Below, piece by piece: positions 2,717 to 58,427 of a stretch of 64,000 nt of DNA. Both the position numbers and the translations under genes were made by a program. The DNA is from Dehalococcoidia bacterium. Lineage in GTDB: Bacteria > Chloroflexota > Dehalococcoidia > UBA6926. Location of the stretch: NCBI GenBank assembly GCA_965207115.1, contig CBDBLR010000003.1:224563-288562 (forward strand), given 5' to 3'. Position 1 is the stretch's first letter; every line of letters starts with the position of its first letter. Under the pieces are notes generated by a model. The model did no database searches, had not been told where the DNA came from, and saw only the letters and a list, made by a program, of their open reading frames with translations.

Positions 2717-4042
2717 TCAGTCGAAAGCAAGTTGTGGGAACTGGTCGAAATTGTAGGATGAACCCTCATGGACAAGCGCGTCCCACCAGTCGATTCCGAA
2801 CCCGACCTTTTCCTCGAAATTTTCGCAAAGTATCTTTAAGTGCGGGTCACGATCAAACCGCTCATGTTTGTAGACGACCAAGCCGAGTCGCCGAGTAAGG
2901 AGTTCATGCATTTCGTTGAATAGCCTCACATTGGACTGCTTGGGTCGCAACCATACGACCATTTGCCCAGGTAGGCCGGTTCGGACATTACGAGGCATGC
3001 TCGTATGGTCAGTTAGCAGGGCGCTTGCGACGGAGAATCCCCGGGTGAACGCCGCTACGACCGATTCAGCAGAGGCCATTAACCCCTTGGGTAGCCGAAA
3101 ACCGTCGCAGTTCGTTTGTGGGGCAAAGGCTTGTGTAATGACTTCAAATGCTTTTGAGTCATCGGAGAGGTCAATAGTGACGGCCTGTTCGGACACTTCA
3201 ACCGTTGAATCGGGTAGCGCCCGCCGTGCCTGAATCGCTATCTCATCCGGGATAGTGCGTAACGCAGTTGCCGCTTCAAATGATTGATTCCTTACCGTGA
3301 TGCGACCTTCGTTGTAGCTGGCAGCCCGGAAGAGAAGACGAATTCTGATTGATGATTCCGTCAGATTCAGTTCTCCTCTAGCCGCAATTGCGCCCATCAG
3401 ATACGCCGCCTCAAGTGAGGGCCACGCAAATGGCTTCCTTGCAGCCGACTGCAAGTGCTCGGTCAGAGTTCGTAGTGCTCCACGTGACCGTCTTTCACCA
3501 CGCAACCAAGATGTCCTCAGGCGACCACAGTAGAGCTCATAGAGACGCGCGGCTTCGTGGTCGATATAGGATGCTTGTGGGTTGTTCCACAGGGACTCAA
3601 ATGCTTCATGTAGCATCCTGTTCTCCTGTGAATCAGACGGGCAATCAAGGACGATGCCATACTCCACGTTGCGGTTGAGAGCGGCGCCGGTCAGGTTCCC
3701 AGAACCGACTATCGAACTAGCTCCGGTGTCCATCTCTGTGAGATAGAGCTTGGCGTGGAAATTCCCACCATCGTCTTTCGGAAGCAGAGTCTTGAGTGTC
3801 ATCGTCTCATGGGCTTCCTGCAATGCGACCAGCGACCACACTGCGGACGGATCGGTGTTGCCGCTCTGAAGGTCAATGAGGAAGCGGATCTGGCGACCGT
3901 CGCGCAGTAAAGTCTCGATTTGCGGCATGACTATATCAAGCCCCTCTTTGGAGACGTAGGCAACGGCAATACTCACGTCGCTGTCTGACGACAATAGTGC
4001 TGGAATGTCTGCCCCATAGTCAGCGGAGCGAATCATCGTCAT
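2717..4042 (-). CDS. PLD/HKD-superfamily nuclease-like protein with an unrelated C-terminal domain; candidate restriction endonuclease, 441 aa
   Basis: Single HKD motif HAKLYLTEMDTGASSIVGSGNLT (H96, K98). The start ATG overlaps the methyltransferase stop (ATGA at 4039-4042). Local GC is lower than the flanks. Confidence 0.7.
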   Translation of the reverse strand: MTMIRSADYGADIPALLSSDSDVSIAVAYVSKEGLDIVMPQIETLLRDGRQIRFLIDLQSGNTDPSAVWSLVALQEAHETMTLKTLLPKDDGGNFHAKLYLTEMDTGASSIVGSGNLTGAALNRNVEYGIVLDCPSDSQENRMLHEAFESLWNNPQASYIDHEAARLYELYCGRLRTSWLRGERRSRGALRTLTEHLQSAARKPFAWPSLEAAYLMGAIAARGELNLTESSIRIRLLFRAASYNEGRITVRNQSFEAATALRTIPDEIAIQARRALPDSTVEVSEQAVTIDLSDDSKAFEVITQAFAPQTNCDGFRLPKGLMASAESVVAAFTRGFSVASALLTDHTSMPRNVRTGLPGQMVVWLRPKQSNVRLFNEMHELLTRRLGLVVYKHERFDRDPHLKILCENFEEKVGFGIDWWDALVHEGSSYNFDQFPQLAFD

Positions 4043-4899
4043 TTTGGCTTCTGGAAGATGTTTATGTACTCGTGAACCTTGTTGATGCGAAAGACGGACG
4101 GGTGACCCAAGGGGCGAAGATTGTTGTACTCGCTGCTGCGATCCCAGATGATGATGTCATCGAGGACAAACCCAACCTTTTCCATGTATTGGGCTAGGTC
4201 TGCATGGAACGGATAGAATCGATCCTTTTTGCGCAAGTCCATGACAATTACGCAACAATAGGCTCCAGGCTTTATGGCGAGATAAACCTTGCTGAAAACT
4301 TCTGTCAACTCTTCAAGGAAGGCGTGGTAGTCTTCAATCGTGCCTAGATCTCCTTCAGCATTCCCATAATGGCGAACGTCTTTGTAGTCCGCAGTGCGAT
4401 CTCTTTGGAGTATGTCCCAGTAAGGCGGGGACGTTATCACAAGGTCTACTGTTTCCGGCTCCACGAATTCCAGGAGGTTTCGCGCGTCCGCGACATGCAG
4501 TTGTCTCTCGCCAAGCTCCGCCGCGGTATTTAGAAGCGGTTGAGGCCGCGTGTGCGCTTTCGTAATGTAATCAACCGACAGGTCAAGCCCGATGCCGATC
4601 TTGCCCGCCGCCTCTGCGGCAATGACCGTCGAACCGACACCGACAAATGGGTCAAGGACTATCCGTTGGTCATTCGTCGTGAGACTCTCAATGAGCCGTG
4701 TTACCAGTTGACCCGGGAACATGGCGGGGTGCTTTAGGTTTTGTTCCTCGCTCGTCTTGCGGATGTCATTCCACACGCTGATGGAGTTGCGCAGCCACGC
4801 TGCGCCGTCAAGATCGTTCGCCCTCTTGCGTGGGGACCTCGGCTTGGATGGAGGTTTTTCCTCTCCGGGCAACAATCGTTGCTGTGCTTCTGTGGCCAA
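4039..4899 (-). CDS. N6-adenine/N4-cytosine DNA methyltransferase (PF01555-like), 286 aa, TTG start
   Basis: KHPAMFPGQL...VLDPFVGVGSTVIAAE (motifs X and I) followed by VDLVITSPPYWD (motif IV). Translationally coupled to the downstream PLD gene. Confidence 0.85.
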   Translation of the reverse strand: MATEAQQRLLPGEEKPPSKPRSPRKRANDLDGAAWLRNSISVWNDIRKTSEEQNLKHPAMFPGQLVTRLIESLTTNDQRIVLDPFVGVGSTVIAAEAAGKIGIGLDLSVDYITKAHTRPQPLLNTAAELGERQLHVADARNLLEFVEPETVDLVITSPPYWDILQRDRTADYKDVRHYGNAEGDLGTIEDYHAFLEELTEVFSKVYLAIKPGAYCCVIVMDLRKKDRFYPFHADLAQYMEKVGFVLDDIIIWDRSSEYNNLRPLGHPSVFRINKVHEYINIFQKPK

Positions 4900-4972: not shown

Positions 4973-7351
4973 CTAGGTTAACGCTCCTACGTCCTGTAGT
5001 TTCTGCACTTCGTCGTCTGAGAGGCCGAGGATTCCGCGGAGGACGTAGTCATTGTGCTGGCCGAGGGCGGCGGAGGGCATCCGCGAGCCGCCGGGCGTTT
5101 CTGACAGGCGGACGGTGACGCCCGGCTGCTGCAAGACACCCCAATCCGGGTGATCCAGCGTTTGGATGTAGCCGCGCTCACGCAGGTGCGGGTCCCAGTA
5201 CAGCCCCTCGCCGTCGAGGACGGCGGTGGCAGCGACGCCTGAGCGTTGGAGCAGGTGCATGACTTGGCGTGGCGTCTGCGTTCGCGTCCACTCGGACAGT
5301 TCGGCGTTCAGCGCGTCCTCGTTGGCTTTACGTCCCTCTTGCGTCGCATAGTCTGGAGTCTGCGTCCATGCAGGAGCGCCAATGGCCTGAACGAGCGCTT
5401 CCCATTCCTGGTCCGTCCTGCAGGCGATGGCGCACCATTCATCGCTGCCCTTGGCGGGATAGATGCCGTGCGGGGCGTGGACGGGGTGGCGGTTGCCAAC
5501 GGGCTCGCCGGGACGGCCGTTGACCTTGTAGTCCATGAAGGGCATGGCCATGGTGTTGCCGACGGCCTCCACCTGCGCCATCTCTACGTACTGGCCGCGT
5601 CCCGTCTCTGCCTTGTGATAGATGGCGGCAAGAGCGGCGAGCGCGGTAAGGCTGGCGATGAGAAAGTCAGGGTAGTCGAACTTGCAGCGGGCGTTCGGTT
5701 CCGACTCCGGGTGTCCCCATGTGTAGCTGAGGCCGGAGACGGAGACGAGGCTGAATCCGAAGGCGACGTGATCCTTAAGCGGCCCGATGCTGCCCCACCC
5801 GGGCATGCTGACCTGGATGATCTCCGGGTTGACCTTACGCAGTTCCTCGTAGCCGAGATCGAAGCGGTCGATGACGCCGAGCGCGAAGTTGTCTATGACG
5901 AGGTCAGAGACGGCGGCGATGCGCATGGCGACTTCCCGCGCCTCATCGTGATGCAGGTCAAGCGTGATGCCGTGCTTGTTGCGGTTGAGATCGGCAACGA
6001 ATGGCATCGTGCCCATGCGGTTGTTGGTGTCGAACAGGGACGACTCAACCTTGATAACTTCCGCGCCGTAGTCGGCAAGCTGACGCGTGCAGTACGGCCC
6101 CGCCCAGATTCGCGTGAAGTCCAGGACTCGCACGCCCTCAAGCGGTAGCACGGGGGTCGCGCCGTTCTCCGCCGCTCCGGCGGGCGCAGGTTGGCGTTCC
6201 GAGACTTGACCGGCGTGTTCGTTCAACAGAGGGGCGGGTTTGGGCTGGGGGATGGGTGTTTCCGACATACGGAAGGGCGGGCCGGGGAGAGGATATTCAC
6301 CGATATCGGGGTGTTTGACTGTCGTGAAATAGTCACGCTCAGCGAACTGGACATTGTCGGCAAAGTCGCCGGGGCGATTGACGGGCGCGGCTGCGAGGCG
6401 TCGACTCTGTGCCTCTTCCACGAACTCGGCCACCGTAAACTGCTCGATGAACGGCCTGGTGAGGGAATCGATGAACAGCATGTTCTCGCCCTGCCGGTTG
6501 ATAAGCGGATACCAGAACTCGTCCTGCAGGGCGGGCTCGCCCATCCAGTCGAAGAAGACCCTTGCCTGCGGGGCGAGGAGCACGGCAAGGCTCACCCATC
6601 CGTCCTTACACCGGTAGATGTTGTAGGGGGCGAGGTTGCCGGTTGCGCCGATGCGCTCTCCGATCTCCGACGTGGCCGAGTAGCGGATGATCTGGTAGAA
6701 GATGTTGGCCAGCACCTCCTGCATGGAGACTTCCACGTGCTGGCCTCGGCCAGTCTTGCGGCGCGCCATGAGCGCGTAGAAGACTCCGTGCGCGGCGTGG
6801 ATGTTGGCCATGATATATGCCTGGTCGAGGGGAGCGGCTGCGGGGGGCTGCTCGTCGTCGCCCTGGATAGTTGTCAGCCCGCTCATGGCAATGGCATGGA
6901 GGTCTGAAGCCAGGTAATCGCCATAGGGGCCGGACTCGCCGAACGGCGTGACGGAGACGGTGATCAGGCGAGGATTGTCCTCTCTCAAGACGCCATCAGG
7001 CAGCCCGATGGTGGCGAGGTAGCCGGGCTCGAAACTGTCCAGCACGACATCGGCGGACCGCGCCATGTCCAGCAACTGTTGGCGGCCATTGTCCGTTGCA
7101 ATGTCGATGACGACGCTCGACTTATTGGAGTTGTAGGCGAGCCAGCGGAGGCTGCGGTTTAGGCCCGGTTCATCACCGGCGAACGGAGGCAGGAACCGGA
7201 CGGGATCGCCGCCCGGGGGCTCGATTTTGATGACCTCCGCGCCCATGTCTGCCAGCAGGCGACCGGCGTACTGCCCGGCCAACCCGGACAGGTCAAGCAC
7301 GCGGATTCCTGCCAAGACGGACGGAGACGTTCCATTGGCTGTCGTTGTCAT
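4973..7351 (-). CDS. Tandem two-domain family III (CaiB/BaiF-type) CoA-transferase, 792 aa; paralog of 276..2687
   Basis: GIRVLDLSGLAGQYAGRLLADMGAEVIKIE and a second GVRVLDFTRIWAGPYCTRQLADYGAEVIKVE. Shares the SMPGWGS.GP and NRNK motifs with the paralog. Confidence 0.85.
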   Translation of the reverse strand: MTTTANGTSPSVLAGIRVLDLSGLAGQYAGRLLADMGAEVIKIEPPGGDPVRFLPPFAGDEPGLNRSLRWLAYNSNKSSVVIDIATDNGRQQLLDMARSADVVLDSFEPGYLATIGLPDGVLREDNPRLITVSVTPFGESGPYGDYLASDLHAIAMSGLTTIQGDDEQPPAAAPLDQAYIMANIHAAHGVFYALMARRKTGRGQHVEVSMQEVLANIFYQIIRYSATSEIGERIGATGNLAPYNIYRCKDGWVSLAVLLAPQARVFFDWMGEPALQDEFWYPLINRQGENMLFIDSLTRPFIEQFTVAEFVEEAQSRRLAAAPVNRPGDFADNVQFAERDYFTTVKHPDIGEYPLPGPPFRMSETPIPQPKPAPLLNEHAGQVSERQPAPAGAAENGATPVLPLEGVRVLDFTRIWAGPYCTRQLADYGAEVIKVESSLFDTNNRMGTMPFVADLNRNKHGITLDLHHDEAREVAMRIAAVSDLVIDNFALGVIDRFDLGYEELRKVNPEIIQVSMPGWGSIGPLKDHVAFGFSLVSVSGLSYTWGHPESEPNARCKFDYPDFLIASLTALAALAAIYHKAETGRGQYVEMAQVEAVGNTMAMPFMDYKVNGRPGEPVGNRHPVHAPHGIYPAKGSDEWCAIACRTDQEWEALVQAIGAPAWTQTPDYATQEGRKANEDALNAELSEWTRTQTPRQVMHLLQRSGVAATAVLDGEGLYWDPHLRERGYIQTLDHPDWGVLQQPGVTVRLSETPGGSRMPSAALGQHNDYVLRGILGLSDDEVQKLQDVGALT

Positions 7352-9005: not shown

Positions 9006-9509
9006 TTACGGCCTGACTTCGAGAGTGGCGATGAGGCGCTCTCTGACACTCGTCCCGGCCGCCGTATCGGTCGTCACATGATCGGTGTGCTCCATGGATG
9101 AGGAATCAGACGGAGAATCCATGCTGCCCATGTCATCCATTCCCGAGTCTGCCGTGAGAACGCCTTCGGCGGCGTGAATAAAGATGTCATACCGCCCTGT
9201 CGCATGTGCCTCGAAACTCATCGGCGCTGTCACCCCGGGCCCCACCTCCGCCTCGATGTTATAGCCATGCAAATGGACCAGGAGCGGCAAGTCGCTCGTC
9301 CAATCGATCGTGACTGTATCCCCCTGATTGACCGTCAAAGTTGATTCGTCGGCGGTCAATTCGCCTCCGACGATTTCCATTTCAAAGGCAACGTCCTGAG
9401 GCTCACGATCCTCACACGCGGCGGCAAGGAGGGCGGCCAACACTATCGCCATGGCAATCGTTGCCGTCCTCAACAGGTTCGTGACGTTCAAATGGTCACC
9501 TTGTTCCAC
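9006..9509 (-). CDS. Putative lipoprotein with a cupredoxin-like fold and a Met/His/Asp-rich tail, 167 aa
   Basis: Hydrophobic N-terminus with LAAAC. LTVNQGDTVTIDWTSD...VHLHGYN...FEAHATGRYDIFIH resembles cupredoxin-like domains. C-terminal MDDMGSMDSPSDSSSMEHTDH is a metal-binding-type low-complexity region. The exact start is uncertain. Confidence 0.5.
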   Translation of the reverse strand: MEQGDHLNVTNLLRTATIAMAIVLAALLAAACEDREPQDVAFEMEIVGGELTADESTLTVNQGDTVTIDWTSDLPLLVHLHGYNIEAEVGPGVTAPMSFEAHATGRYDIFIHAAEGVLTADSGMDDMGSMDSPSDSSSMEHTDHVTTDTAAGTSVRERLIATLEVRP

Positions 9510-9608: not shown

Positions 9609-9735
9609 CCCTTCGACAAGCTCAGGGCGAAGGGAACGGGGTTGGCTGCGGATTGAGGCTTTGGATTCTTCGCTGCGCTCAGAATGACGGAGAGGGCGGG
9701 AATGACGGAGGGGGCGGCCCTTCGACAGGCTCAGG
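9609..9735. repeat. Composite intergenic repeat cluster
   Basis: 18-nt direct repeat CCCTTCGACARGCTCAGG at 9609-9626 and 9718-9735 (17/18 identical). A full copy of the CCGTCATTC...GAATCC family lies at 9663-9690 (reverse orientation), with a partial GGGAATGACGG at 9698-9708. Track ORFs here translate to typical repeat-derived peptides (LSLSKG, PELVEG, RSEES). Confidence 0.75.
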
Positions 9736-11006: not shown

Positions 11007-11900
11007 CTATCCTGTCGTCTCTGATGACTCGCCCACCAGGGCGAGAATCTCCGCTCCTCTCGTCCCATCGAGCCGTTGCGAGTCAACGGCAAACTTCGCC
11101 GTCGCCTGCGCGAGCGCCGCGTATAAGGGTACTACGCCCGGCAAGGTAGCCTGCAACTGCTCAAGGTGCGCCTGCACGGTCCCGAGGTCTCCCCTGACTA
11201 TCGGGCCTGTCAACGCGGCAGCCGCTCCATCGCGTTCGATATTCCCCACCGTTCCACGAATCAGCGGCAGCAACGCCCGCAAGGCTTGCGACTGATTGTA
11301 CCCGAATTGCGCCCAAAGGCCAGCGGCCTCGGCAATAATCGCTATCAAGTAGTTTGACGCGAGCACTCCTGAGATATGGTAGAGGGCGCGTGATTTCTCG
11401 TTGATGTCGATGGCGTGGCCGTGGAGGGCATGAGCCATGTCACGGAGTTGATGGTGCAGGGCCGGGTCCTGGCTTTCGATGGCGAACGTCACGTTTTCGA
11501 GTGTTGTTGTTCTCAACGAGTTTTGGGGAAAAGTGTAGAGGGGATGGAATCCGCCAGTCACCGCTCCATAGCCACTAGCGCACTCCAGTACGCTCACAGG
11601 TGTTCCGCCGGAGCAATGGACGGCCGCCATGCCATCGCGCCACGGCACGCTTTCCGCGACGGAACCAATCACGTCGTCAGGCACGGTTAGGAAGACGGTG
11701 TCGGCCAGATCAACTAGCAGACCCGCCTGCTGGGTATGTATAGCACCGCCCACACGACCGGCAAGGTCCTTGGCGCGTGGCGCGTTGCGACTCATGATTG
11801 CCGTGATGTTGTATCCGGCATCGGCGAGACCGACGGCAAGCGCCGTGCCAACGGCTCCCGCGCCAAGGATGCCGACTCTGTCGCCGCGAAGCGTCGTCAT
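11007..11900 (-). CDS. Rossmann-fold DUF2520-type oxidoreductase; possible ketopantoate reductase substitute
   Basis: VGILGAGAVGTAL dinucleotide-binding motif at the N-terminus. C-terminal HISGVLASNYL and TGPIVRGD segments are typical of DUF2520. Its start overlaps the stop of the upstream S58 gene (ATGA). Confidence 0.7.
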   Translation of the reverse strand: MTTLRGDRVGILGAGAVGTALAVGLADAGYNITAIMSRNAPRAKDLAGRVGGAIHTQQAGLLVDLADTVFLTVPDDVIGSVAESVPWRDGMAAVHCSGGTPVSVLECASGYGAVTGGFHPLYTFPQNSLRTTTLENVTFAIESQDPALHHQLRDMAHALHGHAIDINEKSRALYHISGVLASNYLIAIIAEAAGLWAQFGYNQSQALRALLPLIRGTVGNIERDGAAAALTGPIVRGDLGTVQAHLEQLQATLPGVVPLYAALAQATAKFAVDSQRLDGTRGAEILALVGESSETTG

Positions 11901-26382: not shown

Positions 26383-26423
26383 GCTACCCGTCAGTCCAAA
26401 CTGACTGAATACGGAACAGGAAA

Positions 26424-26462
26424 CCCTGCCGCCCCTTTTGAAGGGACGGCAGGGTGGTTTTT
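26424..26462 (+). terminator. Rho-independent terminator
   Basis: CCCTGCCGCCCCTT / AAGGGACGGCAGGG stem followed by TGGTTTTT. Confidence 0.75.
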
Positions 26463-26490
26463 GGGGTCATTAACCTCGCAAACACCAACT

Positions 26491-26517
26491 CCGTCATTCC
26501 CCCCGAAAGCGGGGATC
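26491..26517 (+). repeat. Copy of the CCGTCATTC...GAATCC-type short repeat; left flank of the low-GC cassette
   Basis: CCGTCATTCCCCCCGAAAGCGGGGATC with an internal hairpin. It shares the CCGTCATTCC head with the reverse complement of 28204-28230 and of 9663-9690. Confidence 0.7.
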
Positions 26518-26530
26518 TGACGTTGTCCTT

Positions 26531-27697
26531 CTAAAAGCCAGGTATATTTGCCAATTCTCCGGCTCTTGTCTGGAATGAGTTGGCGGTGTCATCAATGCGC
26601 TGCTTGCTCTTGTAGTAGAAAAGATCGTCTTCGGTAAGCCCAGTGATGTTTAGCGCAATCTCCAGCATGTGCGGGCGAAGATGTTTGTTCAAATACATCC
26701 CAACGCCGGCACCCACCACCGTTCCTGCCGTACCAGCGACGACATTCCCTACTCCGGGAATCGCGCTGCCAACAGTGCCGCCCCCCATGCCACCTACTAT
26801 TGCAAGGACAGAGGAGGCACTCATCTTAGACATCAGCGTCAAAGTCTGGACTACCTGAATTTGGTTGCGCGTTGTTCGTTCGGCTGCCTTGAAGTCTCTC
26901 TCAGTCTTGACCACGCTGTAGATTAGACGAGCTCCGCCAACGACTGCCGCAGCGTAGGGCACCATGTCTACAATGCCATCGGGGATGTCGATTCCCATAT
27001 TGGCGCTGAGGGTATTCAGCGCATCTGTCGTTTCACCGACTAGTTCGTAGTCAGAACCGATGTCGCTTATCGTCCTTTCCCCCACGTCGATTCCTGATGC
27101 TTGAACCTTGTCGTATATTTCAGTCCCAAGCGCGTAGTGGTCAGCATAATCCTCGTGGCCCAACGGATACTTATCCATGTGCTCCTGGATTCGGCTTGCG
27201 CTATAGGATTGGCCAGTTTTTACCTGTGTCTGTGTGTAATTTCCCTCAGGGTCCGTCCCGAAGAAATCCCATCCACGTTGGCTACTACTGTTTGGAGCCG
27301 GCTCAACGCTCCCACCTGCCTGATTCTGGCTGTCAATAACGTGAATTTCCGCTAAGCCGCCTTTGAGACCGTTCATGAAAGTGTTGTCGTATGTTTCAGG
27401 ATTGTTCAGAGCATCCTGATGATGCTTCCAGACAGATCGACTCTCATTCGGGAATTTCAACTCATGAGCCAAATTGATTGTTGCTCTCTTGTAATCGTCT
27501 ATATTGACACCGTCGGTCAGCGGCGTGCCTTCAAAAAGAGGCCAAAGGCCAAAGGATGTGGCGGACGTAAACTCAGCCGCGAACATTGAGCGATCCATGC
27601 CCACGATTCCGGCAAGCGTGTCCCTAAATGTCTGTCGCTCAGGTGACACGTTGCCGGGCAGTTGCCGAAGCGCGGGGAGCAGGTCTGACGATTTCAT
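26531..27697 (-). CDS. Uncharacterised 388-aa protein: soluble N-terminal region with a PD-(D/E)xK-like motif, plus a C-terminal glycine-zipper membrane region
   Basis: GLAEIHVID...GWDFFGTDPEGNYTQTQVKTG (E117, D144, QVK158-160). Hydrophobic IVDMVPYAAAVVGGARLIYSVV, then SVLAIVGGMGGGTVGSAIPGVGNVVAGTAGTVVGAGVGMYL. GC is about 42-50% on sampled lines. Confidence 0.7.
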   Translation of the reverse strand: MKSSDLLPALRQLPGNVSPERQTFRDTLAGIVGMDRSMFAAEFTSATSFGLWPLFEGTPLTDGVNIDDYKRATINLAHELKFPNESRSVWKHHQDALNNPETYDNTFMNGLKGGLAEIHVIDSQNQAGGSVEPAPNSSSQRGWDFFGTDPEGNYTQTQVKTGQSYSASRIQEHMDKYPLGHEDYADHYALGTEIYDKVQASGIDVGERTISDIGSDYELVGETTDALNTLSANMGIDIPDGIVDMVPYAAAVVGGARLIYSVVKTERDFKAAERTTRNQIQVVQTLTLMSKMSASSVLAIVGGMGGGTVGSAIPGVGNVVAGTAGTVVGAGVGMYLNKHLRPHMLEIALNITGLTEDDLFYYKSKQRIDDTANSFQTRAGELANIPGF

Positions 27698-27719
27698 ACT
27701 TACGATTATTCTCCGCTTT

Positions 27720-28061
27720 CTAGGCGAGAATTTTTACGCCAAGTGAGACAATAGCCACTGTTACTGCTGCGCTGGCTAAACCAATGAGAATATTGCGCAT
27801 CCTGAGCCACTCTGCTCGGAGCTCATTTCTGGCGTCCCTCACGGCATCCTCAAAGCGACGGTTGTCCTCTTCTCTGGCTTCTCGCACGGCCTGGCTAACG
27901 GCCTTCGCTGCCAGTTCAGGCAGGTCGTCGTGCTCCGCGATGTGCTTAGTGAGTAACTCGTTCTGGCGGATTACCCGGGGAATCAACTCTTGGTTGATTC
28001 TGTCCTGCTCTTCCCAAAAGCGAACCTTATCCTGAATCGATTCTCGATCCGACGTGGTCAT
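27720..28061 (-). CDS. Uncharacterised 113-aa coiled-coil protein with a C-terminal transmembrane anchor
   Basis: I prefer the ATG at 28061 behind GGAGGG (the track ORF starts at 28148). A charged helical region is followed by ILIGLASAAVTVAIVSLGVKILA. There is a 22-nt gap to the downstream gene. Confidence 0.65.
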   Translation of the reverse strand: MTTSDRESIQDKVRFWEEQDRINQELIPRVIRQNELLTKHIAEHDDLPELAAKAVSQAVREAREEDNRRFEDAVRDARNELRAEWLRMRNILIGLASAAVTVAIVSLGVKILA

Positions 28062-28203
28062 TGAGTTACCCTCCACACCATTACGTAGCCGCACCACTGT
28101 AGTACGCACTCTCTGGTGCCATAATATGGGGTCTGGCCGACAAACCAATAGACGCGTCGAGTCACGAGCACGGGGAAGTAGGCCGCTCGGCGGGCCACGC
28201 GAT

Positions 28204-28230
28204 GGATTCCGGCCTGCGCTGGAATGACGG
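28204..28230 (-). repeat. Copy of the CCGTCATTC...GAATCC-type short repeat; right flank of the low-GC cassette, inverted relative to 26491-26517
   Basis: The reverse complement reads CCGTCATTCCAGCGCAGGCCGGAATCC. Confidence 0.7.
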
Positions 28231-28258
28231 CTGGTGGCGCAAGGCTACCCCAGCGCTT

Positions 28259-29716
28259 CTAATCCTTGGCTGACACTTCCGCTTCCAGATCGTCGTCGTA
28301 GTCCGGTTCGGGCATGAGGACGAATTCGGGGTATGACTCCATGCCGAGTTCGCCTGCGTCCTGGCCTAGTTCCTCAACCTGGCGCGACACCCTCGCGCTC
28401 AGCGTCATGTCCAGCGCCTTCCAGACGAGCCAGGCGATACCGAAGACCGTGACGCCGATGACGACGACGCCCAGCAGTTGGATGTGGAGCTGCGCGCCGA
28501 CGGTAATGCTCGCCGCCAGCGTTCCCCAGATGCCCGCAAAGAGGTGGGCGGGGACTGCGCCGACGACGTCATCAATCTTGATACGCTCAAGCAATCGCAG
28601 GCCAACCGTGCAAACAAGTCCTCCCACGGCGCCAATGATGATGGCCCAATAGTGGTCGACAAAGTTGGGCGCGGCGGTGATGGACACAAGACCCGCAATT
28701 GCGCCGTTCAGTACGGCGAAGAGATCCGTGCGCCCCAGGATGTACCGGGACGTAAAGAGGGCGACCAGTACACCGGATGCTGCGGAGAGGTTCGTGTTCA
28801 CCAGTACGATGCTCATCCAAATAGCATCGGTTGCGCCACCGAGGGCTAGCTGCGATCCACCGTTGAATCCCAGCCAGCCGAACCAGAGGATAAAGACCCC
28901 TAAGGTGACGGAGATGATATTGGAGGGTGGTGTGGGACGCGCGCTGCCATCGCGGCGGAACTTGCCCAGCCGTGGACCGATGACAATGAGGCCGGCCAGC
29001 GCGGCCCAACCGCCGGTGCCGTGGACGATGGTGGAGCCGGCGAAGTCGGTGAAGCCGAGATCGCTCAACCAGCCGCCGCCCCAGGTCCACGCGCCGATGA
29101 GGGGATAGATGAAGGCGGTGAGCGAGAGGGTGAAGATGAAGAAAGACCACATCTTGACTCTCTCAGCGAGCGCGCCGGAGACGATGGAGGCCGTTGTGGC
29201 GACGAAGACCATCTGGAAGAACCAGTCGGACATGCCGGCATAGGTGGAATCTTCCAGGACGCCTGCCGCCGAGGCTCCCGCTTCAGCTTCGAGAAGCGCC
29301 ACTTCTGCCGCAGACGAACTGTAGGTGAGGGTGAACGTGCCGATGAGATCGCCAACGTTGAGGCCAAGGATGTTCAGGTCTCGGCCAACATCCACGTACA
29401 TGAGGTTGTAGCCAATGATGTAGTACGCGAGTCCGGCGATCGAGTAGAGGCCGATGTTCTTCATGCAGATCATGGCGGCGTTTTTCGTCCGAACGGAACC
29501 GGCTTCCAGCATGGTGAATCCGGCGCACATCCACATCACGAGCGCGCCCCATATCAGGAAAGAGAGGGTGTTGAAGACGAATGAGGTCTCCTGTTCAACA
29601 CCTACTGCGTGCGCGACACCGGGCCGGAGAAGCATGAGTACGAGGGTCGCGATGGCGCTCGCGGCGAGGATGGTGGGGATGCGTTGATTGGTCATCAACC
29701 ACTGCATAGTTCTCAT
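28259..29716 (-). CDS. amt: Ammonium transporter (Amt family)
   Basis: FVFNTLSFLIWGALVMWMCAGFTMLEAGSVRTKN, TIVHGTGGWAALAG, and 11-12 TM segments. Confidence 0.95.
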   Translation of the reverse strand: MRTMQWLMTNQRIPTILAASAIATLVLMLLRPGVAHAVGVEQETSFVFNTLSFLIWGALVMWMCAGFTMLEAGSVRTKNAAMICMKNIGLYSIAGLAYYIIGYNLMYVDVGRDLNILGLNVGDLIGTFTLTYSSSAAEVALLEAEAGASAAGVLEDSTYAGMSDWFFQMVFVATTASIVSGALAERVKMWSFFIFTLSLTAFIYPLIGAWTWGGGWLSDLGFTDFAGSTIVHGTGGWAALAGLIVIGPRLGKFRRDGSARPTPPSNIISVTLGVFILWFGWLGFNGGSQLALGGATDAIWMSIVLVNTNLSAASGVLVALFTSRYILGRTDLFAVLNGAIAGLVSITAAPNFVDHYWAIIIGAVGGLVCTVGLRLLERIKIDDVVGAVPAHLFAGIWGTLAASITVGAQLHIQLLGVVVIGVTVFGIAWLVWKALDMTLSARVSRQVEELGQDAGELGMESYPEFVLMPEPDYDDDLEAEVSAKD

Positions 29717-40802: not shown

Positions 40803-40936
40803 GTGAGGTCTGCCAGGCGACTTTGCCATGCAATTGCTATCGTGACTATCCTTAAGTGGACAGATGATAAGAGGGTTCGGTCAGCGACTGGGCATGTCAC
40901 AGAGATTCCGTGACCGAGGGACGCAGGAGAGAAGAA

Positions 40937-41641
40937 ATGAATGGTGATCGAGCATCGGGTTTCTACGAGATTCCCGAGGCTGCTCGATTTCTGCGCGCAT
41001 ATTTCTCAGCGCAATTTGCGGAAGAGGATGTCCTTGCAAATGTGACGTCGATTAAGTTGGGGCGCTGGGTTCGGGCGGGGTTGGCAGGACCGGGCAATAC
41101 TGAGAGGGTGGACCGAAAGCTGTGGATCACCTTTTATCAGCTTGTTTCCTTGCAGATTGTCGCCGCGCTCCGTGGTAAACGCTTGTCGATGCAGAAGATT
41201 CGTCGTGCTCAGGAGTGGATGCGTGACTATACAGGCCACCCTGTACCATTCGCTACTGAGGATGTATGGACTGATCGGAACAATATTTTCGCGGAAATGC
41301 GGGGAGATATGGCAGCCGTTGACCGCGGCGGCCAATTGGCTTTCGCATACGTACGTGAGCGCCTGATCAAGGTGCCGCGACTTACGTTTGATGAGGCAGG
41401 TGTTGTAGCCACTTGGGAACCGATAGACGGAGTACTTGTCGATCCGAATATCCAATTCGGCGCACCCTGCATCAAGGGAACACGCATCCAGACTTGGGTT
41501 CTCTCTAACCTAGCCCGGTACGGCGAATCGGAGGAATCGATTAAGGAAGACTACGGTGTTACACGGGCCGATATTGAAGCAGCCATGGAATGGGAGGCCC
41601 TGACCACTGGCCAATCTATCGACTTTCCAGTTCCTGCTTGA
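40937..41641 (+). CDS. HTH plus DUF433 protein; VapB45-like putative antitoxin
   Basis: C-terminal DPNIQFGAPCIKGTRIQTWVL...GESEESIKEDYGVTRADIEAAMEW is DUF433-like. I prefer the ATG at 40937 behind AGGAG; the track GTG is at 40910. Confidence 0.75.
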   Translation: MNGDRASGFYEIPEAARFLRAYFSAQFAEEDVLANVTSIKLGRWVRAGLAGPGNTERVDRKLWITFYQLVSLQIVAALRGKRLSMQKIRRAQEWMRDYTGHPVPFATEDVWTDRNNIFAEMRGDMAAVDRGGQLAFAYVRERLIKVPRLTFDEAGVVATWEPIDGVLVDPNIQFGAPCIKGTRIQTWVLSNLARYGESEESIKEDYGVTRADIEAAMEWEALTTGQSIDFPVPA

Positions 41642-42044
41642 TGAGAACCTGAGTCCCGAGGCCGCTCGTTTCCTAAGGCGAGTTGGATATGGCATCACCC
41701 ATGTGAAGTCCGAGTCTTTGGGTGCGGGTGCCACTGACCAGGAAATCATTGAATGGTGTGGGCAAAATAACCGCGTATGGATTACAGCGGATCGCTCAGC
41801 ACGAACTGAACACGCCGCGGAGATTCTTGCTGCGGGCATTAGGGTCGTATGGCTAAGCCAGCCGCCTAACAACCATCCACTGAGACGTGCTGGCACTTTG
41901 AGAGTCTTAGCGTATCAACTTCCCCGTATTGTCGATAGATTCTACGATTATGATGACCATCTATATTACCGGATTGATTTCATTGGGGATCCGCTGTTTG
42001 ATGGATTTCGCCTTAGGCGCACGTCAGTTCAGGCGTCTGTCTAG
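41607..42044 (+). CDS. DUF5615 (Mut7-C/PIN-like) protein; VapC45-like putative toxin; proposed CTG start
   Basis: FLLDENLSPEAARFLRRVGYGITHV...ATDQEIIEWCGQNNRVWITADRS. The conserved N-terminus lies upstream of the first canonical start (GTG at 41703). CTG at 41607 sits 9 nt behind GGGAGG. Confidence 0.65.
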   Translation: MANLSTFQFLLDENLSPEAARFLRRVGYGITHVKSESLGAGATDQEIIEWCGQNNRVWITADRSARTEHAAEILAAGIRVVWLSQPPNNHPLRRAGTLRVLAYQLPRIVDRFYDYDDHLYYRIDFIGDPLFDGFRLRRTSVQASV

Positions 42045-53843: not shown

Positions 53844-56800
53844 CTAATTCGCCGTGACGAGCGCGGCTCCCTCAACCTTCTTGAGTACCTCGGCGAGTGA
53901 GAGATTCTTGTCACGTAGCTGCGCGGGCAGGGCCTTCCAGAACATCCCACGGTACCTGTCCCAATCGGACAGGATTTCTGCGGAGCGCTTGCTGCCGGTC
54001 GTCTCGGCATGGCGCTCAATGAGCTCCAGAACGTGCCGCTCGTCGTCATCGTCTTCAAGCCTGTCCAGAACCAACAGCTCCTGGTTGTAGAGCGATGGAA
54101 AATCGCCGGTCTCGTCCAGAACGAACGCCGCGCCGCCGGACATGCCCGCTCCGAAATTGCGCCCCACCGTTCCGAGCACGACCACGATGCCGCTGGTCAT
54201 GTATTCACAGCCGTGATCGCCCACGCCCTCCACAACGGCCTGCGTGCCGCTGTTGCGCACTGCGAATCGCTCGCCTGCCCGTCCGGCGACAAAGAAGTAT
54301 CCTCCTGTTCCGCCGTAGATACAGGTGTTGCCGATGATGGAGTTCTTGTGCGACTCGAAATTTGCATCGGCTGGCGGCCTGATGACGAGTTCTCCGCCCG
54401 CCATGCCCTTGCCGACGTAGTCATTCGCCTCGCCTGTCAGCGTCATCCGGACGCCCTCATTCAGGAACGCGCCGAAGCTCTGTCCGGCGGAACCGGCGAA
54501 TGACAGGTCGATCGTGCCGGGGGGCAGGCCCTTGATGCCGTAACGGTGGGCGATGGCTCCCGAGACACGCGCGCCGACGGTGCGCTGGGCATTCCTGATG
54601 TCATAGGACAGCGAGACGGGAGTTCGACTCTCGATTGCGCCGGTGATTTCCGAGAGGATGCGGTCATCCAACTTCTCGTCGTTCGGCCTGTCGTTGCGGT
54701 CTTGCTCATTGCTGACCGGGCGCTGGAAAGCGGGGTCGGCAGGGGCAATCAACTTGAGGGCGTCCACGAACCTGGCGCGCTCGAACTCTTCGATGTCCGG
54801 GCGGAGCGTCAGGAACTCGGGATGGCCGATGATCTCATTCAGCGAGCGTACGCCGATGCTTGCAAGGAGTTCGCGAACTTCCGTTGCGACGAAGGTGAAG
54901 TAATTCACGACCGTCTCGACAGAACCGTTGAACTTGGCGATCAAGTCGTCTCGCTGCGTGGCCACCCCGACGGGGCAGCTGTTCAGATGACATTGACGCG
55001 CCATTTCACAACCCAGTGCGAGCAGGGCAACTGTGCCAAAACCGACTTCATCTGCGCCGAGCATTGTCGCTATGACGACATCGCGCCCCGTGCGGATACC
55101 GCCGTCCGTGCGCAACTTGACGCGGCCGCGCAGGTCATTCATCACCAGGACTTGCTGTGCCTCTGTCAGGCCCAGCTCCCATGGCGTGCCGGCGTTCTTG
55201 ATGGATGACAGCGGACTCGCGCCCGTGCCGCCCTCATGACCGGAGATCTGAACCTTGTCCGCGTAGCCCTTGGCGACGCCGGCGGCGATTGTGCCGACGC
55301 CAGCTTCCGCCACCAGCTTGACGCTGACCTTGGCTCGGGGATTGACCGTCTTGAGGTCATAGATGAGCTGTGCCAGATCCTCGATGGAGTAGATGTCGTG
55401 GTGCGGCGGCGGCGAGATCAGCGTGATCCCGGGCTGCGTGTGGCGGATGTAAGCGATGTACTCGATGACCTTGTGGCCGGGGAGCTGCCCGCCCTCGCCG
55501 GGCTTGGAGCCCTGCGCCATCTTGATCTCAAGCTCCTCGGCCATGGCGAGGTATTCCGGCGTGACGCCGAAACGGCCTGACGCGACCTGCTTGATCTTGG
55601 AGTTGGCATTGTAGCCACGCGTAAGGCCACGGAAGCGTCGGGGATCCTCACCGCCCTCGCCGGTATCAGCCGCGCCGCCGATGTGGTTCATGGCCATAGC
55701 CAGCGTCTCATGCGCTGGTGGGCTCAACGCGCCGAGCGACATTGCGCCCGTCGTGAAGTGCTTCCAGATCTCTTCGATTGGCTCCACCTCATCGATGGGG
55801 ATTGGCTCACGCGTCTTGTTGAACGTCAGCACGTCCCGCAGCGAGGAAACCGGCCGATTGTTCAGCGCGTCGCGGTAGGGAACATAGTCCTCGTAGTCGC
55901 CGGATCGGACAGCCCTGTGCAGCGTCCGCACGACGATGGGGTTGTTGGCGTGGAACTCGCCGCTCTTGCGATAGCGGATGAATCCGTGGTCTTCGAGCTT
56001 GGATTTTGGCGTCAGTTCCGTGTTGAACGCCCGCTCATGCCGGGCGAGGATATCTGTCGCCAGCTCGCGGAATCCCAGTCCGCCCACCTGCGACGGCGTG
56101 CTCACAAAACACTTCTGAATAATATCGTCGCTCAGGCCGATGGCCTCAAATATCTGCGCGCCGTGGTATGACGTGACCGTGGAGATGCCAATCTTGGACA
56201 TGATCTTCAGCACGCCCTTGTTGGCAGACGCCTGGTACTTGGCGAGGGTGTAGTCCTCGTCCTCCTCCTCGCTGAACTCTCCGCGTTCGAAGAGTTCACG
56301 CAGGCTCTCCCAGATGAGATACGGATTGACGGCGCTCGCGCCATACCCGATGAGCGCCGCGAAGTGGTGTACCTCTCTCGCCTCGCCCGTGTCACATACA
56401 AGGCTCGCCTTCATGCGCTTGCCGCGTCGGATGAGGTCGTGATGGACCGCCCCGAGGGCCAGCAACATTGGGATGGGCGCGTGTCGCTCGTCTACGGGCC
56501 TGTCCGAGAGAACGATGATCGAGTGTCCCGCGTCCACCGCGGAGACTGCCTGTTCACACAGATCGTCTATTGCCTTTTCCAGAGCGTCCGGACCATCCCC
56601 TGCGGTGAAGACAGCCGGCAGCGTGACGGACGAGAGGCTTGGTGAATCTACCCCACGGATTGCGTCGAGCTCATGGTCACGGATAACGGGTCCGGGGACG
56701 GCGAGCAGATGTGCCGCCTCCTCGCGTTCCCGCAGCATGCTGTCGCGCGGGCCGAGGTACGTCTCTGCGGACATGACGATGGCCTCGCGGATAGGGTCGA

Positions 56801-58427
56801 TTGCCGGGTTTGTCACCTGCGCGAATCGCTGCTTGAAATAGTTGAACAGGGAGGGCTGCATCCGGGAGAAGACCGCCAACGGCGTGTCATCGCCCATCGA
56901 ATACGTGGCGTCCTTGCCCTCCTGCACCATGGGCTTGATGACGATGAGCAGCTCTTCCGCCGTCATCCCGAAGGCCTTTTGGCGGCGCATCAACTCCATC
57001 TCAGATTCAAGGTGATGCCCCGCGCCGTTCTGCATGGAGTGTATTGGCACGTTCAGCTGGATGTACTGACGTTCCGCCCACTCGCGATAGGGCTGCTGCA
57101 CGGCGATTTCACTCTTGATCTCGCCGTTCTTCATGATGCGCCCGCTGCGGGTGTCAACGGCAATCATGTGCCCGGGGCCAAGACGGCCCTTTTCGATGAT
57201 GCGCTCATTCGCGATGTGCGGCAGGACGCCGACCTCTGAACCCATGACCACAAGGCCGTCATCCGTGATGATGTAGCGGGCAGGGCGCAGGCCGTTGCGA
57301 TCCAGCGATGCCCCGACTGTCTCGCCGTCCGACCATGCCAGCGCGGCGGGGCCGTCCCACGGCTCGGTCAGGGATGCGTGGTATCGATAGAATCCGCGAA
57401 GATCCTCGTCCATGTGCGGCATGTTCTCCCACGCCTCCGGCGTGAGCATCATCATGGAGTGCAACAGGCTCCGACCGGACACCTGCAGGAGTTCAAATGC
57501 GTGATCCAGAGAGGCGGAGTCCGAGACCGTCTGCGATGTTAGCGGCGTGATTGTGCGGATATCGTCCTTCGACCACACTTCGGAACTGAGGTCGGCCTCG
57601 CGTGCTCGCAGCCAATTGCGGTTGCCCTGCAGGGTGTTGATTTCACCGTTGTGGGCCAGGAATCGGAATGGCTGCGAAAGCTGCCAATTGGGGAACGTGT
57701 TGGTGGAATAGCGCTGATGGAAGACGGCCAGAGCCGATTCAAAGTCTGGGTCATCAAGATCTTTGTAGAAGCCCGACAACTGCGTTGCGACAAGTAGACC
57801 CTTGTACACGACTGTCCTTGATGAAAAGGACGGGATGTAGAACTCGGTGTCGTCCTGCGCCGTCATTTCGTTTTCGACGGCTCGCCGTACCAGGTACAGC
57901 GCGCGTTCAAACGCGTCATTATCCAGGTCCGACGGGCGGGCAATAATCGCTTGTCGAATATCCGGCTGGGTGGCCAGCGCCTGTTCGCCGAGTACGGAGG
58001 GATCGTTCGGCACATCCCGCCACGTCAGGAAGCGAAGGCCGCGCTTCGCCGTCTCCTGCTCGACCATCTTGGCCGCATGCTTCGAGCCATCCGGGTTCTC
58101 GGCGTTAAAGAACACCATGCCGAGCGCGAGGTCATCGCCTGAGACATCGGAAATGCCATGAGAGGCGAGCTCGCGAAGGAGCAGCTTGCGTGGAAGTTGT
58201 GTCAGGATACCTGCGCCGTCACCCGTGCGAGCGTCTGCAGATACTGCGCCTCGGTGGGTGAGATTGACCACGGCAGTAATCGCCTGCCTGACAATGTCAT
58301 ACGACGGAACGCCGGAAACCTGTGCGATAAAGCCGGTTCCGCAGGCATCCTTTTCGTGGATGGGATCGTATAGCGGCGGCGCGTCAGGACGCCGCCACTG
58401 ACGTGCTTCTATTGAGGCCATAGCCAA
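53844..58427 (-). CDS. gltB: Glutamate synthase large subunit, 1527 aa
   Basis: N-terminal amidotransferase domain with KDACGTGFIA, FMN and Fe-S regions, and a C-terminal GXGXG domain. No gltD is adjacent. Confidence 0.97.
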   Translation of the reverse strand: MAMASIEARQWRRPDAPPLYDPIHEKDACGTGFIAQVSGVPSYDIVRQAITAVVNLTHRGAVSADARTGDGAGILTQLPRKLLLRELASHGISDVSGDDLALGMVFFNAENPDGSKHAAKMVEQETAKRGLRFLTWRDVPNDPSVLGEQALATQPDIRQAIIARPSDLDNDAFERALYLVRRAVENEMTAQDDTEFYIPSFSSRTVVYKGLLVATQLSGFYKDLDDPDFESALAVFHQRYSTNTFPNWQLSQPFRFLAHNGEINTLQGNRNWLRAREADLSSEVWSKDDIRTITPLTSQTVSDSASLDHAFELLQVSGRSLLHSMMMLTPEAWENMPHMDEDLRGFYRYHASLTEPWDGPAALAWSDGETVGASLDRNGLRPARYIITDDGLVVMGSEVGVLPHIANERIIEKGRLGPGHMIAVDTRSGRIMKNGEIKSEIAVQQPYREWAERQYIQLNVPIHSMQNGAGHHLESEMELMRRQKAFGMTAEELLIVIKPMVQEGKDATYSMGDDTPLAVFSRMQPSLFNYFKQRFAQVTNPAIDPIREAIVMSAETYLGPRDSMLREREEAAHLLAVPGPVIRDHELDAIRGVDSPSLSSVTLPAVFTAGDGPDALEKAIDDLCEQAVSAVDAGHSIIVLSDRPVDERHAPIPMLLALGAVHHDLIRRGKRMKASLVCDTGEAREVHHFAALIGYGASAVNPYLIWESLRELFERGEFSEEEDEDYTLAKYQASANKGVLKIMSKIGISTVTSYHGAQIFEAIGLSDDIIQKCFVSTPSQVGGLGFRELATDILARHERAFNTELTPKSKLEDHGFIRYRKSGEFHANNPIVVRTLHRAVRSGDYEDYVPYRDALNNRPVSSLRDVLTFNKTREPIPIDEVEPIEEIWKHFTTGAMSLGALSPPAHETLAMAMNHIGGAADTGEGGEDPRRFRGLTRGYNANSKIKQVASGRFGVTPEYLAMAEELEIKMAQGSKPGEGGQLPGHKVIEYIAYIRHTQPGITLISPPPHHDIYSIEDLAQLIYDLKTVNPRAKVSVKLVAEAGVGTIAAGVAKGYADKVQISGHEGGTGASPLSSIKNAGTPWELGLTEAQQVLVMNDLRGRVKLRTDGGIRTGRDVVIATMLGADEVGFGTVALLALGCEMARQCHLNSCPVGVATQRDDLIAKFNGSVETVVNYFTFVATEVRELLASIGVRSLNEIIGHPEFLTLRPDIEEFERARFVDALKLIAPADPAFQRPVSNEQDRNDRPNDEKLDDRILSEITGAIESRTPVSLSYDIRNAQRTVGARVSGAIAHRYGIKGLPPGTIDLSFAGSAGQSFGAFLNEGVRMTLTGEANDYVGKGMAGGELVIRPPADANFESHKNSIIGNTCIYGGTGGYFFVAGRAGERFAVRNSGTQAVVEGVGDHGCEYMTSGIVVVLGTVGRNFGAGMSGGAAFVLDETGDFPSLYNQELLVLDRLEDDDDERHVLELIERHAETTGSKRSAEILSDWDRYRGMFWKALPAQLRDKNLSLAEVLKKVEGAALVTAN

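Follow-up and report, generated by a model that had tools for sequence, protein, structure and literature searches.

Which function can be assigned to two adjacent low-GC genes that lie among housekeeping genes of a Dehalococcoidia bacterium? The genes are located in a 64,000-nucleotide (nt) stretch of contig CBDBLR010000003.1 (assembly GCA_965207115.1, positions 224,563 to 288,562), referred to here as the window, and form a pair on the minus strand in which a small gene precedes a large one (Table 1). Both products belong to protein families without a curated model; their parts and their general logic are of known kinds. The pair has the behaviour of an accessory, mobile, and dispensable unit, and we tentatively read it as a membrane conflict module, self-contained in its two genes and spread by horizontal transfer, that would serve defence or abortive infection, a reading to which we assign a probability of roughly 0.3. 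The evidence for it comes from the anatomy of the two proteins, their joint conservation, and their mobility, and four other explanations are weighed below.

In agreement with the original prediction, which was made from the letters of the DNA alone, the two open reading frames (ORFs) are co-directional and 22 nt apart (27698-27719). A GGAGGG sequence is found 8 nt before the ATG of the small gene. Analysed in 400-nt windows, the GC content is low across 26400-28000, with values of 0.49-0.55 for the pair versus 0.60-0.66 on both flanks (approximately 0.62). The dip that had been claimed is thus real, whereas the 42% given for it was never reached in windows of this size. The codon statistics are lowered as well: the GC content at third codon positions (GC3) is 0.57 and 0.58 for the two genes, compared with 0.72-0.80 for most genes of the window.

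When one genome was surveyed for each species, 72 loci were obtained, of which 64 were from Chloroflexota (mostly Dehalococcoidia or SAR202-type metagenome-assembled genomes, MAGs), six from Latescibacterota, and one each from Gemmatimonadota and Acidimicrobiales. In every locus that had retained the 5' end of the large gene (68/68), the head of the small gene was present upstream in the same orientation, its start lying 345-1189 nt (median 480) before that of the large gene; the spacing between the genes was 13-22 nt where measured. Clustering of 1045 flanking ORFs revealed no third conserved gene, the next family being a luciferase-like monooxygenase found in 14 loci. These data bear out the proposal of a functional pair in which the small coiled-coil gene is co-conserved. 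Beyond these loci, 505 homologues of the large protein were found in a 5.8-billion cluster database (E ≤0.001), none of which was named or contained a Pfam domain. An exhaustive hidden Markov model (HMM) search of 1.84 billion representative proteins gave only 415 clusters; the family is therefore small. For neither protein did sequence searches against Pfam, NCBIfam, PHROGs, PADLOC, and PDB produce a match above threshold, and no family or solved structure was matched by the small one. Matches of the latter to RbcX, MlaC, and cytochrome b562 were discarded as helical or compositional noise.

The small protein has 424 homologues with total lengths of 113-185 amino acids. Its head of approximately 40 residues carries the motif VRFWEEQDKINQELIPRVIRQNELLTKHIAEHDNLP, with 19 positions being invariant. 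The Q/A/E-rich coiled-coil stalk varies in length via repeated QQQYDAALEAAKQE-like units. A basic patch precedes the single C-terminal hydrophobic segment, for which a 19-residue Kyte-Doolittle mean of 2.4 was calculated, and the tail behind it is almost nil. The protein is thus the charged coiled coil with one C-terminal transmembrane (TM) helix that had been anticipated. From the positive-inside rule and the tail-anchor layout we infer that the head faces the cytoplasm.

For the large protein, residue conservation was counted in an alignment of 43 homologous sequences. Residues S3, P8, L10, L13, E42, and W52 of its conserved N-terminal region are invariant, and the AlphaFold model of this region has low confidence. 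In the full-length AlphaFold2 model, residues 68-217 alone are confident. A model restricted to residues 60-220 reached a predicted local distance difference test (pLDDT) value of 88.5 and a predicted template modelling (pTM) score of 0.82; it shows a helical N-terminal part followed by an alpha-beta-beta-beta-alpha-beta arrangement (H41-67, E71-74, E86-89, E95-101, H108-117, and E128-131, in the numbering given for the domain model). Of the strings for which a restriction-endonuclease-like region had been proposed, AEIHV falls in helix 1, WDFFG at the beginning of strand 2, and QTQVKTG in strand 3. The acidic and lysine motif thereby occupies its canonical places: E belongs to helix 1, D opens strand 2, and QxK lies in strand 3. 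Invariant residues are K112, G113, E117, and Q158, whereas D144 and K160 each occur in 42 of the 43 sequences. The QxK variant of the motif is that of the Mrr type, in line with the weak Mrr_cat matches given below.

Foldseek searches with the domain model gave top matches in PDB and BFVD that were nearly all PD-(D/E)xK enzymes, with best E values of 5e-3 and 1.4e-3. The PDB matches comprised EcoO109I, I-Ssp6803I, VRR-NUC, LlaBIII, YaeQ, MspJI, the SPARDA nuclease, NucS/EndoMS, a CdiA-CT, DrdV, and AvaII; the viral ones were endonuclease I, MmcB-like proteins, restriction endonucleases, NOV_C, VRR-NUC, and RecU. Mrr_cat (PF04471) was matched by eight of the 43 members, always below threshold (best E 7.8e-4), and the large protein of the window gave no match to this model at E values up to 1. 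The likeness to Mrr_cat consists in the alpha-beta-beta-beta-alpha-beta core, the E...D...QxK pattern, and the Foldseek matches to LlaBIII, DrdV, and MspJI; the differences are scores below the Pfam gathering score, TM-scores of 0.3-0.4, an extra N-terminal helical region, and the fused membrane module. Taken together, the proposal of a restriction-endonuclease-like central region holds: a PD-(D/E)xK-type fold is confidently modelled, and the metal-dependent nuclease activity of this superfamily is putative here. The domain is otherwise the least conserved part of the protein (40% mean pairwise identity), and the surface residues around the motif diverge. Five longer homologues of 476-571 amino acids (P0094, P0045, P0101, P0115, and P0247) have a second copy of it. 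In P0247 (540 amino acids), the one homologue read in this respect, the first copy is without the D and the K, and the copy adjoining the C-terminal membrane module is intact.

The invariance or near invariance of the catalytic-type residues and the weak Mrr_cat matches would also fit a direct defence, in which the C-terminal module and the small protein would do no more than keep an active Mrr-like nuclease at the inner membrane face, where it would cut entering DNA away from the chromosome, as described for SNIPE and Shield ShdA. Membrane-bound nucleases are proven defence effectors (PMC13190303, PMC10270631), and the small-protein stalk of variable length could set the distance from the membrane.

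The C-terminal approximately 170 residues exhibit a mean pairwise identity of approximately 70%, the highest in the protein, versus the 40% of the nuclease-like core. They comprise a GIDIPDG motif, a helix with an invariant R257-L258, a charged loop, a symmetric glycine zipper, and an almost invariant DDLFYYKNKxRID sequence. The zipper is laid out as GxxxGxxxG, turn, GxxxGxxxG, with G302/G306/G310 in the first arm, the turn P314-G315-x-G317-N318, and G322/G325/G329/G333 in the second. Within it, G306, G310, G317, G325, G329, and G333 are invariant, and G302, G303, P314, G315, N318, and G322 are kept in at least 90% of the 43 sequences. Of the hydrophobic helix and glycine zipper described originally, the zipper was confirmed by its invariant glycines; the hydropathy of the hydrophobic segments (Kyte-Doolittle values of 1.3-1.5) makes a membrane helix, and hence insertion of the large protein into the membrane, only plausible. 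As the best-conserved part, with a symmetric zipper and invariant glycines, the module appears to be more than an anchor.

Tandem GxxxG motifs on two adjacent helices, as in the PF05433 and PF13488 families, are present in the module, and its HMM scores are sub-threshold. The families matched in this way were Gly-zipper_Omp, Rick_17kDa_Anti (glycine zipper 2TM), DUF1269, and DUF6861. With Gly-zipper_Omp, glycine zipper 2TM, DUF6861, and Tde1 the pair shares repeated GxxxG motifs on a pair of helices with a tight turn between them; it differs from them in that the similarity is sub-threshold only and the zipper is part of a larger module of approximately 170 residues with invariant GIDIPDG and DDLFYYKNK motifs. 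In both DUF6861 proteins and Tde1, such zippers are linked to nuclease toxins, and the combination of nuclease and glycine zipper is a known toxin design (PMC10240207). The large protein might accordingly be pictured as an exported interbacterial toxin whose zipper carries the nuclease across the target membrane, as in Tde1 and DUF6861 toxins, with the small protein as immunity protein or chaperone. DUF6861, a glycine-zipper membrane domain of polymorphic toxins, was indeed weakly matched by ten of the 43 members (best 0.005, sub-threshold). However, the domain order is reversed: DUF6861 polymorphic toxins have an N-terminal zipper and a variable C-terminal toxin, whereas in the large protein the zipper follows the nuclease-like domain and the C terminus is most conserved. 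The family is conserved end to end and has no variable toxin tip, no recurrent secretion-system genes were found among the neighbours, and no signal peptide is evident on reading the N-terminal sequence (no prediction tool was applied). An exported toxin is for these reasons very improbable.

The relation between the parts became apparent from distant low-GC relatives recovered in the HMM search (P0363, P0366, P0367, P0369, P0373, and P0384), which have only the C-terminal module, placed behind unrelated short N termini. Directly upstream, in both of the contexts that were readable, lies a gene for a tail-anchored coiled coil bearing an FWEEQ(D/E)KIN head. Since these relatives keep the partner and the C-terminal module without the nuclease-like domain, the core of the system consists of the small protein and the C-terminal module. 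The PD-(D/E)xK domain would then be an addition of this clade that provides an input or an output. This finding lends no support to the roles of sensor and membrane effector proposed originally: the strict partnership joins the small protein to the C-terminal module, and the nuclease-like domain is a clade-specific addition. One further homologue, P0390 (361 amino acids), contains, within one frame, an extra N-terminal segment, a small-protein-like region, the start of the TM segment, a short linker, and the N terminus of a large homologue. A natural fusion of both proteins is conceivable; judged from the sequence, a frameshift or read-through within the TM region is more probable, and P0390 was not used as evidence.

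The same relatives argue against a nuclease that is merely tethered, as they keep partner and membrane module without any nuclease-like domain. Moreover, the membrane module is far better conserved than the nuclease-like domain. This is the opposite of SNIPE (PD-lambda-1), a nuclease of the GIY-YIG type that carries DUF4041 and whose N-terminal anchor is poorly conserved (PMC13190303). The pair has in common with SNIPE the concept of an inner-membrane-confined nuclease, so that only entering DNA is cut; it differs by its Mrr-like domain and by a membrane module that is its best-conserved part, and neither GIY-YIG nor DUF4041 was detected in profile searches. Shield ShdA is a membrane-bound RmuC-domain nuclease in defence with an N-terminal TM segment (PMC10270631). 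Here, the likeness lies in a cytoplasmic PD-(D/E)xK-superfamily nuclease domain held at the membrane and in a small, mobile system. ShdA combines its N-terminal TM segment and RmuC domain in one protein, whereas the pair has a C-terminal zipper hairpin and a separate tail-anchored coiled coil. No RmuC or ShdA match was obtained, and the hydrophobic region of the large protein is C-terminal. With no sequence relation to GIY-YIG, DUF4041, or RmuC, a tethered nuclease acting directly on entering DNA is rather unlikely.

The mobility of the pair was evident from loci with and without it. Orthologues of the neighbouring 252-amino acid membrane protein (72-85% identity) identified three relatives with the same backbone (L077, L078, and L080), in which the slot filled here by the pair carries other cargo. 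Backbone homology to the window ends at 26464-26466 (26387 for L080) and resumes at 28269 in L078, at 28290 in L080, and at 29875 in L077. The slot of L078 (7920-8783) contains two small ORFs of 88 and 179 amino acids, that of L080 (7970-8915) Sod_Cu plus an ORF of 117 amino acids, and that of L077 (7918-9352) three ORFs (89, 259, and 134 amino acids) plus a thioesterase-fold (4HBT) gene, with no amt. The ORF of 88 or 89 amino acids right after the membrane-protein gene may be common to L077 and L078. In the two loci most similar to the pair, L073 and L001, the unit follows recQ rather than amt, and the flanks are unrelated to the window. The DNA similarity to them (82% and 80%, respectively) is restricted to 26528/26529-28128, which covers the two genes and a leader of 67 nt. 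This leader contains a TATTAT-like box (CATATTATGGCACC) approximately 60 nt before the small-gene ATG and is, judged from its conservation, a putative promoter of the unit's own; a sigma-70 consensus scan gave no match.

The GC content of the large gene was below that of the flanks in 61 of 71 loci, with a mean difference of 5 points, and copies from Latescibacterota were 61-66% identical to some Chloroflexota copies, above many values within Chloroflexota. Differing slot cargo, unrelated flanks, low GC content, and cross-phylum identity jointly support the horizontal acquisition that had been inferred at the outset. Three genomes harbour two separate loci each (L009/L020, L037/L041, and L039/L067). 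Two copies of the pair, with two large genes, are present within one locus in L017 (2745-2975 and 5536-5763), and L068 has a second small gene. Decay was observed as well, the large gene being split in L014, L059, L063, and L066 and truncated or fragmentary in L029, L061, L067, and L069-L072. With regard to habitat, the link of Langseth Ridge to sponge grounds is the only one confirmed in the literature. One backbone relative derives from a TARA sample, and the SB0662, RHO1, bin22, and UUID-named MAG series are presumably of sponge origin.

The pair had also been described as a cassette bracketed by inverted repeats. Two elements are present in inverted orientation, as stated; their exact complementarity amounts to just 10 nt (CCGTCATTCC), and they turned out to be dispersed hairpins resembling repetitive extragenic palindromic (REP) elements and no feature of a cassette. 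The family, GTCATTC-N(8-18)-GRATC, has three copies in the window versus 0.29 expected, the third of them at 9664-9688. Both flanking copies lie outside the 1.6-kb block common to the closest loci and sit between backbone and unit. Among 73 related loci scanned, a hairpin directly after the large-gene stop was found only in L073 (copies at 9182-9205 and 11539-11562) and one approximately 220 nt further downstream in L007; elsewhere the family is sporadic and mostly away from the pair. In the relatives without the pair, the slot contains six copies in L077 (8951-10436) and one each in L078 (8761-8784) and L080 (7834-7858). The repeats were therefore rejected as cassette ends. Being dense in the slot without the pair and located outside the unit, they characterise the hotspot, not the cassette. 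The REP-like family (GTCATTCC-CGCGAAAGCGG-GAATC type) is common to several Dehalococcoidia genomes and clusters in the slot between a 248-amino acid membrane-protein gene and amt/PHP, where it could mark a recombination hotspot.

A compact order of a small and a large gene with 13-22 nt between them where measured, mobility, several copies in some genomes, and variable contexts are also features of an addiction module of the toxin-antitoxin type. The large protein would be a membrane or DNA toxin that is neutralised by the small membrane protein, and membrane toxins commonly have glycine zippers. We consider this improbable, as the plasmid and phage collections hold no copies, neither protein matches known toxin-antitoxin families, and a highly conserved head on a long stalk would be unusual for an antitoxin.

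Several results weigh against the preferred reading as a conflict module. The immediate neighbours of the pair in the window are housekeeping genes. Among the 137 nearest neighbours over all loci, the commonest Pfam families were CoA transferase, amidohydrolase, SDR, and aminotransferase, i.e. mostly metabolic ones. Uma2, DDE_Tnp_1, HicB, and AAA_21 occurred two to three times each, and many PADLOC matches of neighbours were housekeeping cross-hits, such as RecQ to DpdF models. Defence-enriched neighbourhoods, another point raised with the original prediction, were consequently not apparent: by raw count, only a handful of mobile or defence-type matches was seen among the 137 neighbours. With PADLOC-DB v2.0.0, the two proteins gave only a composition-type LeoB match (E 0.0011) over the glycine-rich residues 295-332 of the large protein and none for the small protein; as noted before, no named defence system can thus be recognised. 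No relatives were found in IMG/VR, among the INPHARED phages, or among the PLSDB plasmids. At the protein level, the hydrophobic segments of the large protein fall under the usual TM threshold of 1.6, the Foldseek search of the nuclease-like domain gave no match at E ≤0.001 in PDB and BFVD, and the C-terminal half has a pLDDT below 50 in the full-length AlphaFold2 model, which is unusable there.

In part, the same data suit a physiological membrane role without any conflict, for example that of a niche-specific pair organising the envelope or the contact of nucleoid and membrane, apparently in microbiomes of sponges or other marine hosts, and spread by its usefulness. The metabolic and housekeeping neighbours, the exclusively chromosomal occurrence (none in phage, viral-contig, and plasmid collections), the small family with its narrow taxonomy and ecology, and the strong conservation of the membrane module, as under purifying selection, all fit such a role. 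It accounts less well for the patchy presence even among close relatives with the same backbone, the varying genomic position, the decayed copies, and a composition that is foreign in most hosts, and a nuclease-type active site sits poorly with a purely structural task. We regard a non-conflict role as doubtful, and as the alternative to be taken most seriously.

If the pair is a membrane conflict module, it may operate as follows. The small protein would be inserted into the cytoplasmic membrane by its C-terminal helix, and its head would extend into the cytoplasm on the coiled-coil stalk, whose length varies. The large protein would join the membrane via its glycine-zipper hairpin, probably as an oligomer, and its C-terminal module would form the core complex with the small protein. 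In this clade, DNA near the membrane would additionally be bound or cut by the Mrr-like PD-(D/E)xK domain that the large protein has in the cytoplasm. Foreign DNA engaging this domain would release the core, and the zipper hairpins would then permeabilise the membrane; defence or abortive infection is the outcome that we infer from this arrangement. RexAB-type abortive infection likewise consists of two genes and couples a nucleic acid-related cytoplasmic trigger to a depolarising membrane component. The likeness extends to the two genes and to the trigger and membrane component proposed for the pair. There is no sequence or fold relation, and in the pair the trigger-like and membrane parts would reside in one polypeptide, the second protein being a tail-anchored coiled coil. 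No named system was found in which a tail-anchored coiled coil is the partner of a protein that joins a PD-(D/E)xK domain to a conserved glycine-zipper module.

The surroundings of the pair in the window comprise genes for an M28 peptidase, a pyridine-nucleotide disulphide oxidoreductase, the 252-amino acid membrane protein, the ammonium transporter (amt), a PHP-domain protein, and YmdB. A 15-bp GC-rich hairpin between the convergent gene of the membrane protein and the large gene is likely a bidirectional terminator and belongs to the backbone. A match to RNAI (Rfam, 26416-26493, minus strand) overlaps this hairpin and was dismissed as chance (25.3 bits, with the gathering score at 47). Clear defence genes in the window are limited to a type II restriction-modification pair 22 kb away (2717-4896, minus strand; GC3 0.58 and 0.62), in which a PLD-family endonuclease (PLDc_2, weak RE_NgoFVII) accompanies an N6_N4 DNA methylase. 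It is located between paralogous ORFs of approximately 800 amino acids (276-2687 and 4973-7351) that are 47% identical. Two ORFs with low GC3 (0.54 and 0.48) at 40910-42044 (plus strand), the first with DUF433 and the second without a family, may represent a small acquired module. An ORF of 1527 amino acids at 53844-58427 (minus strand) has a normal GC3.

Table 1. Positions of the gene pair, its predicted protein regions, and associated elements in the window
Feature	Position	Strand	Basis or remark
Small gene	27720-28061	minus	ORF, 113 amino acids
Invariant head of small protein, residues 9-47	27921-28037	minus	homologue alignment
C-terminal TM segment of small protein, residues 91-112	27726-27791	minus	hydropathy
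Large gene	26531-27697	minus	ORF, 388 amino acids plus stop
Conserved N-terminal region of large protein, residues 1-60	27518-27697	minus	mean pairwise identity 60%
Predicted PD-(D/E)xK (Mrr-like) core, residues 100-217	27047-27400	minus	domain model, Foldseek, motif
Motif residue E117	27347-27349	minus	
Motif residue D144	27266-27268	minus	
Motif residue Q158	27224-27226	minus	
Motif residue K160	27218-27220	minus	
Putative C-terminal membrane module, residues 218-388	26534-27046	minus	most conserved part
Glycine-zipper hairpin, residues 296-336	26690-26812	minus	alignment
Conserved 5' leader travelling with the pair	28062-28128	minus	DNA homology to L073/L001 ends at 28128; alignment block
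Transferable unit (leader, small gene, large gene)	26529-28128	minus	80-82% DNA identity to L073/L001
Variable slot of the backbone, filled here by the unit	26467-28268		backbone comparison with L077, L078, L080
15-bp GC-rich hairpin between convergent genes	26423-26455		inside backbone homology
REP-like hairpin GTCATTCCCCCCGAAAGCGGGGATC	26493-26517	plus	14 nt downstream of large-gene stop; dispersed family
REP-like hairpin GTCATTCCAGCGCAGGCCGGAATC	28205-28228	minus	between amt and unit; dispersed family
Third REP-like copy	9664-9688 (listed with the family as 9664-9708)	minus	motif scan

As for the family as a whole, we tentatively propose that the pair founds a new type of membrane immunity, in which a tail-anchored coiled-coil "ruler" cooperates with a channel-forming glycine-zipper module and cytoplasmic input domains are exchangeable, the one present here being an Mrr-like nuclease. 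Its spread would have occurred by transfer between phyla in host-associated marine consortia such as sponge microbiomes. With only two genes and 1.6 kb, the module can be synthesized and tested directly. If it is an immune or addiction system, it would represent a defence architecture so far found only in uncultured genomes of Chloroflexota, Latescibacterota, Gemmatimonadota, and Acidimicrobiales, groups that are rarely reached by discovery pipelines trained on Proteobacteria and Firmicutes. Two new protein families would be added, built on a clear modular principle in which the membrane core is conserved and the cytoplasmic domain exchangeable, and, given its spread between phyla, the module would mark gene flow within one microbial community.

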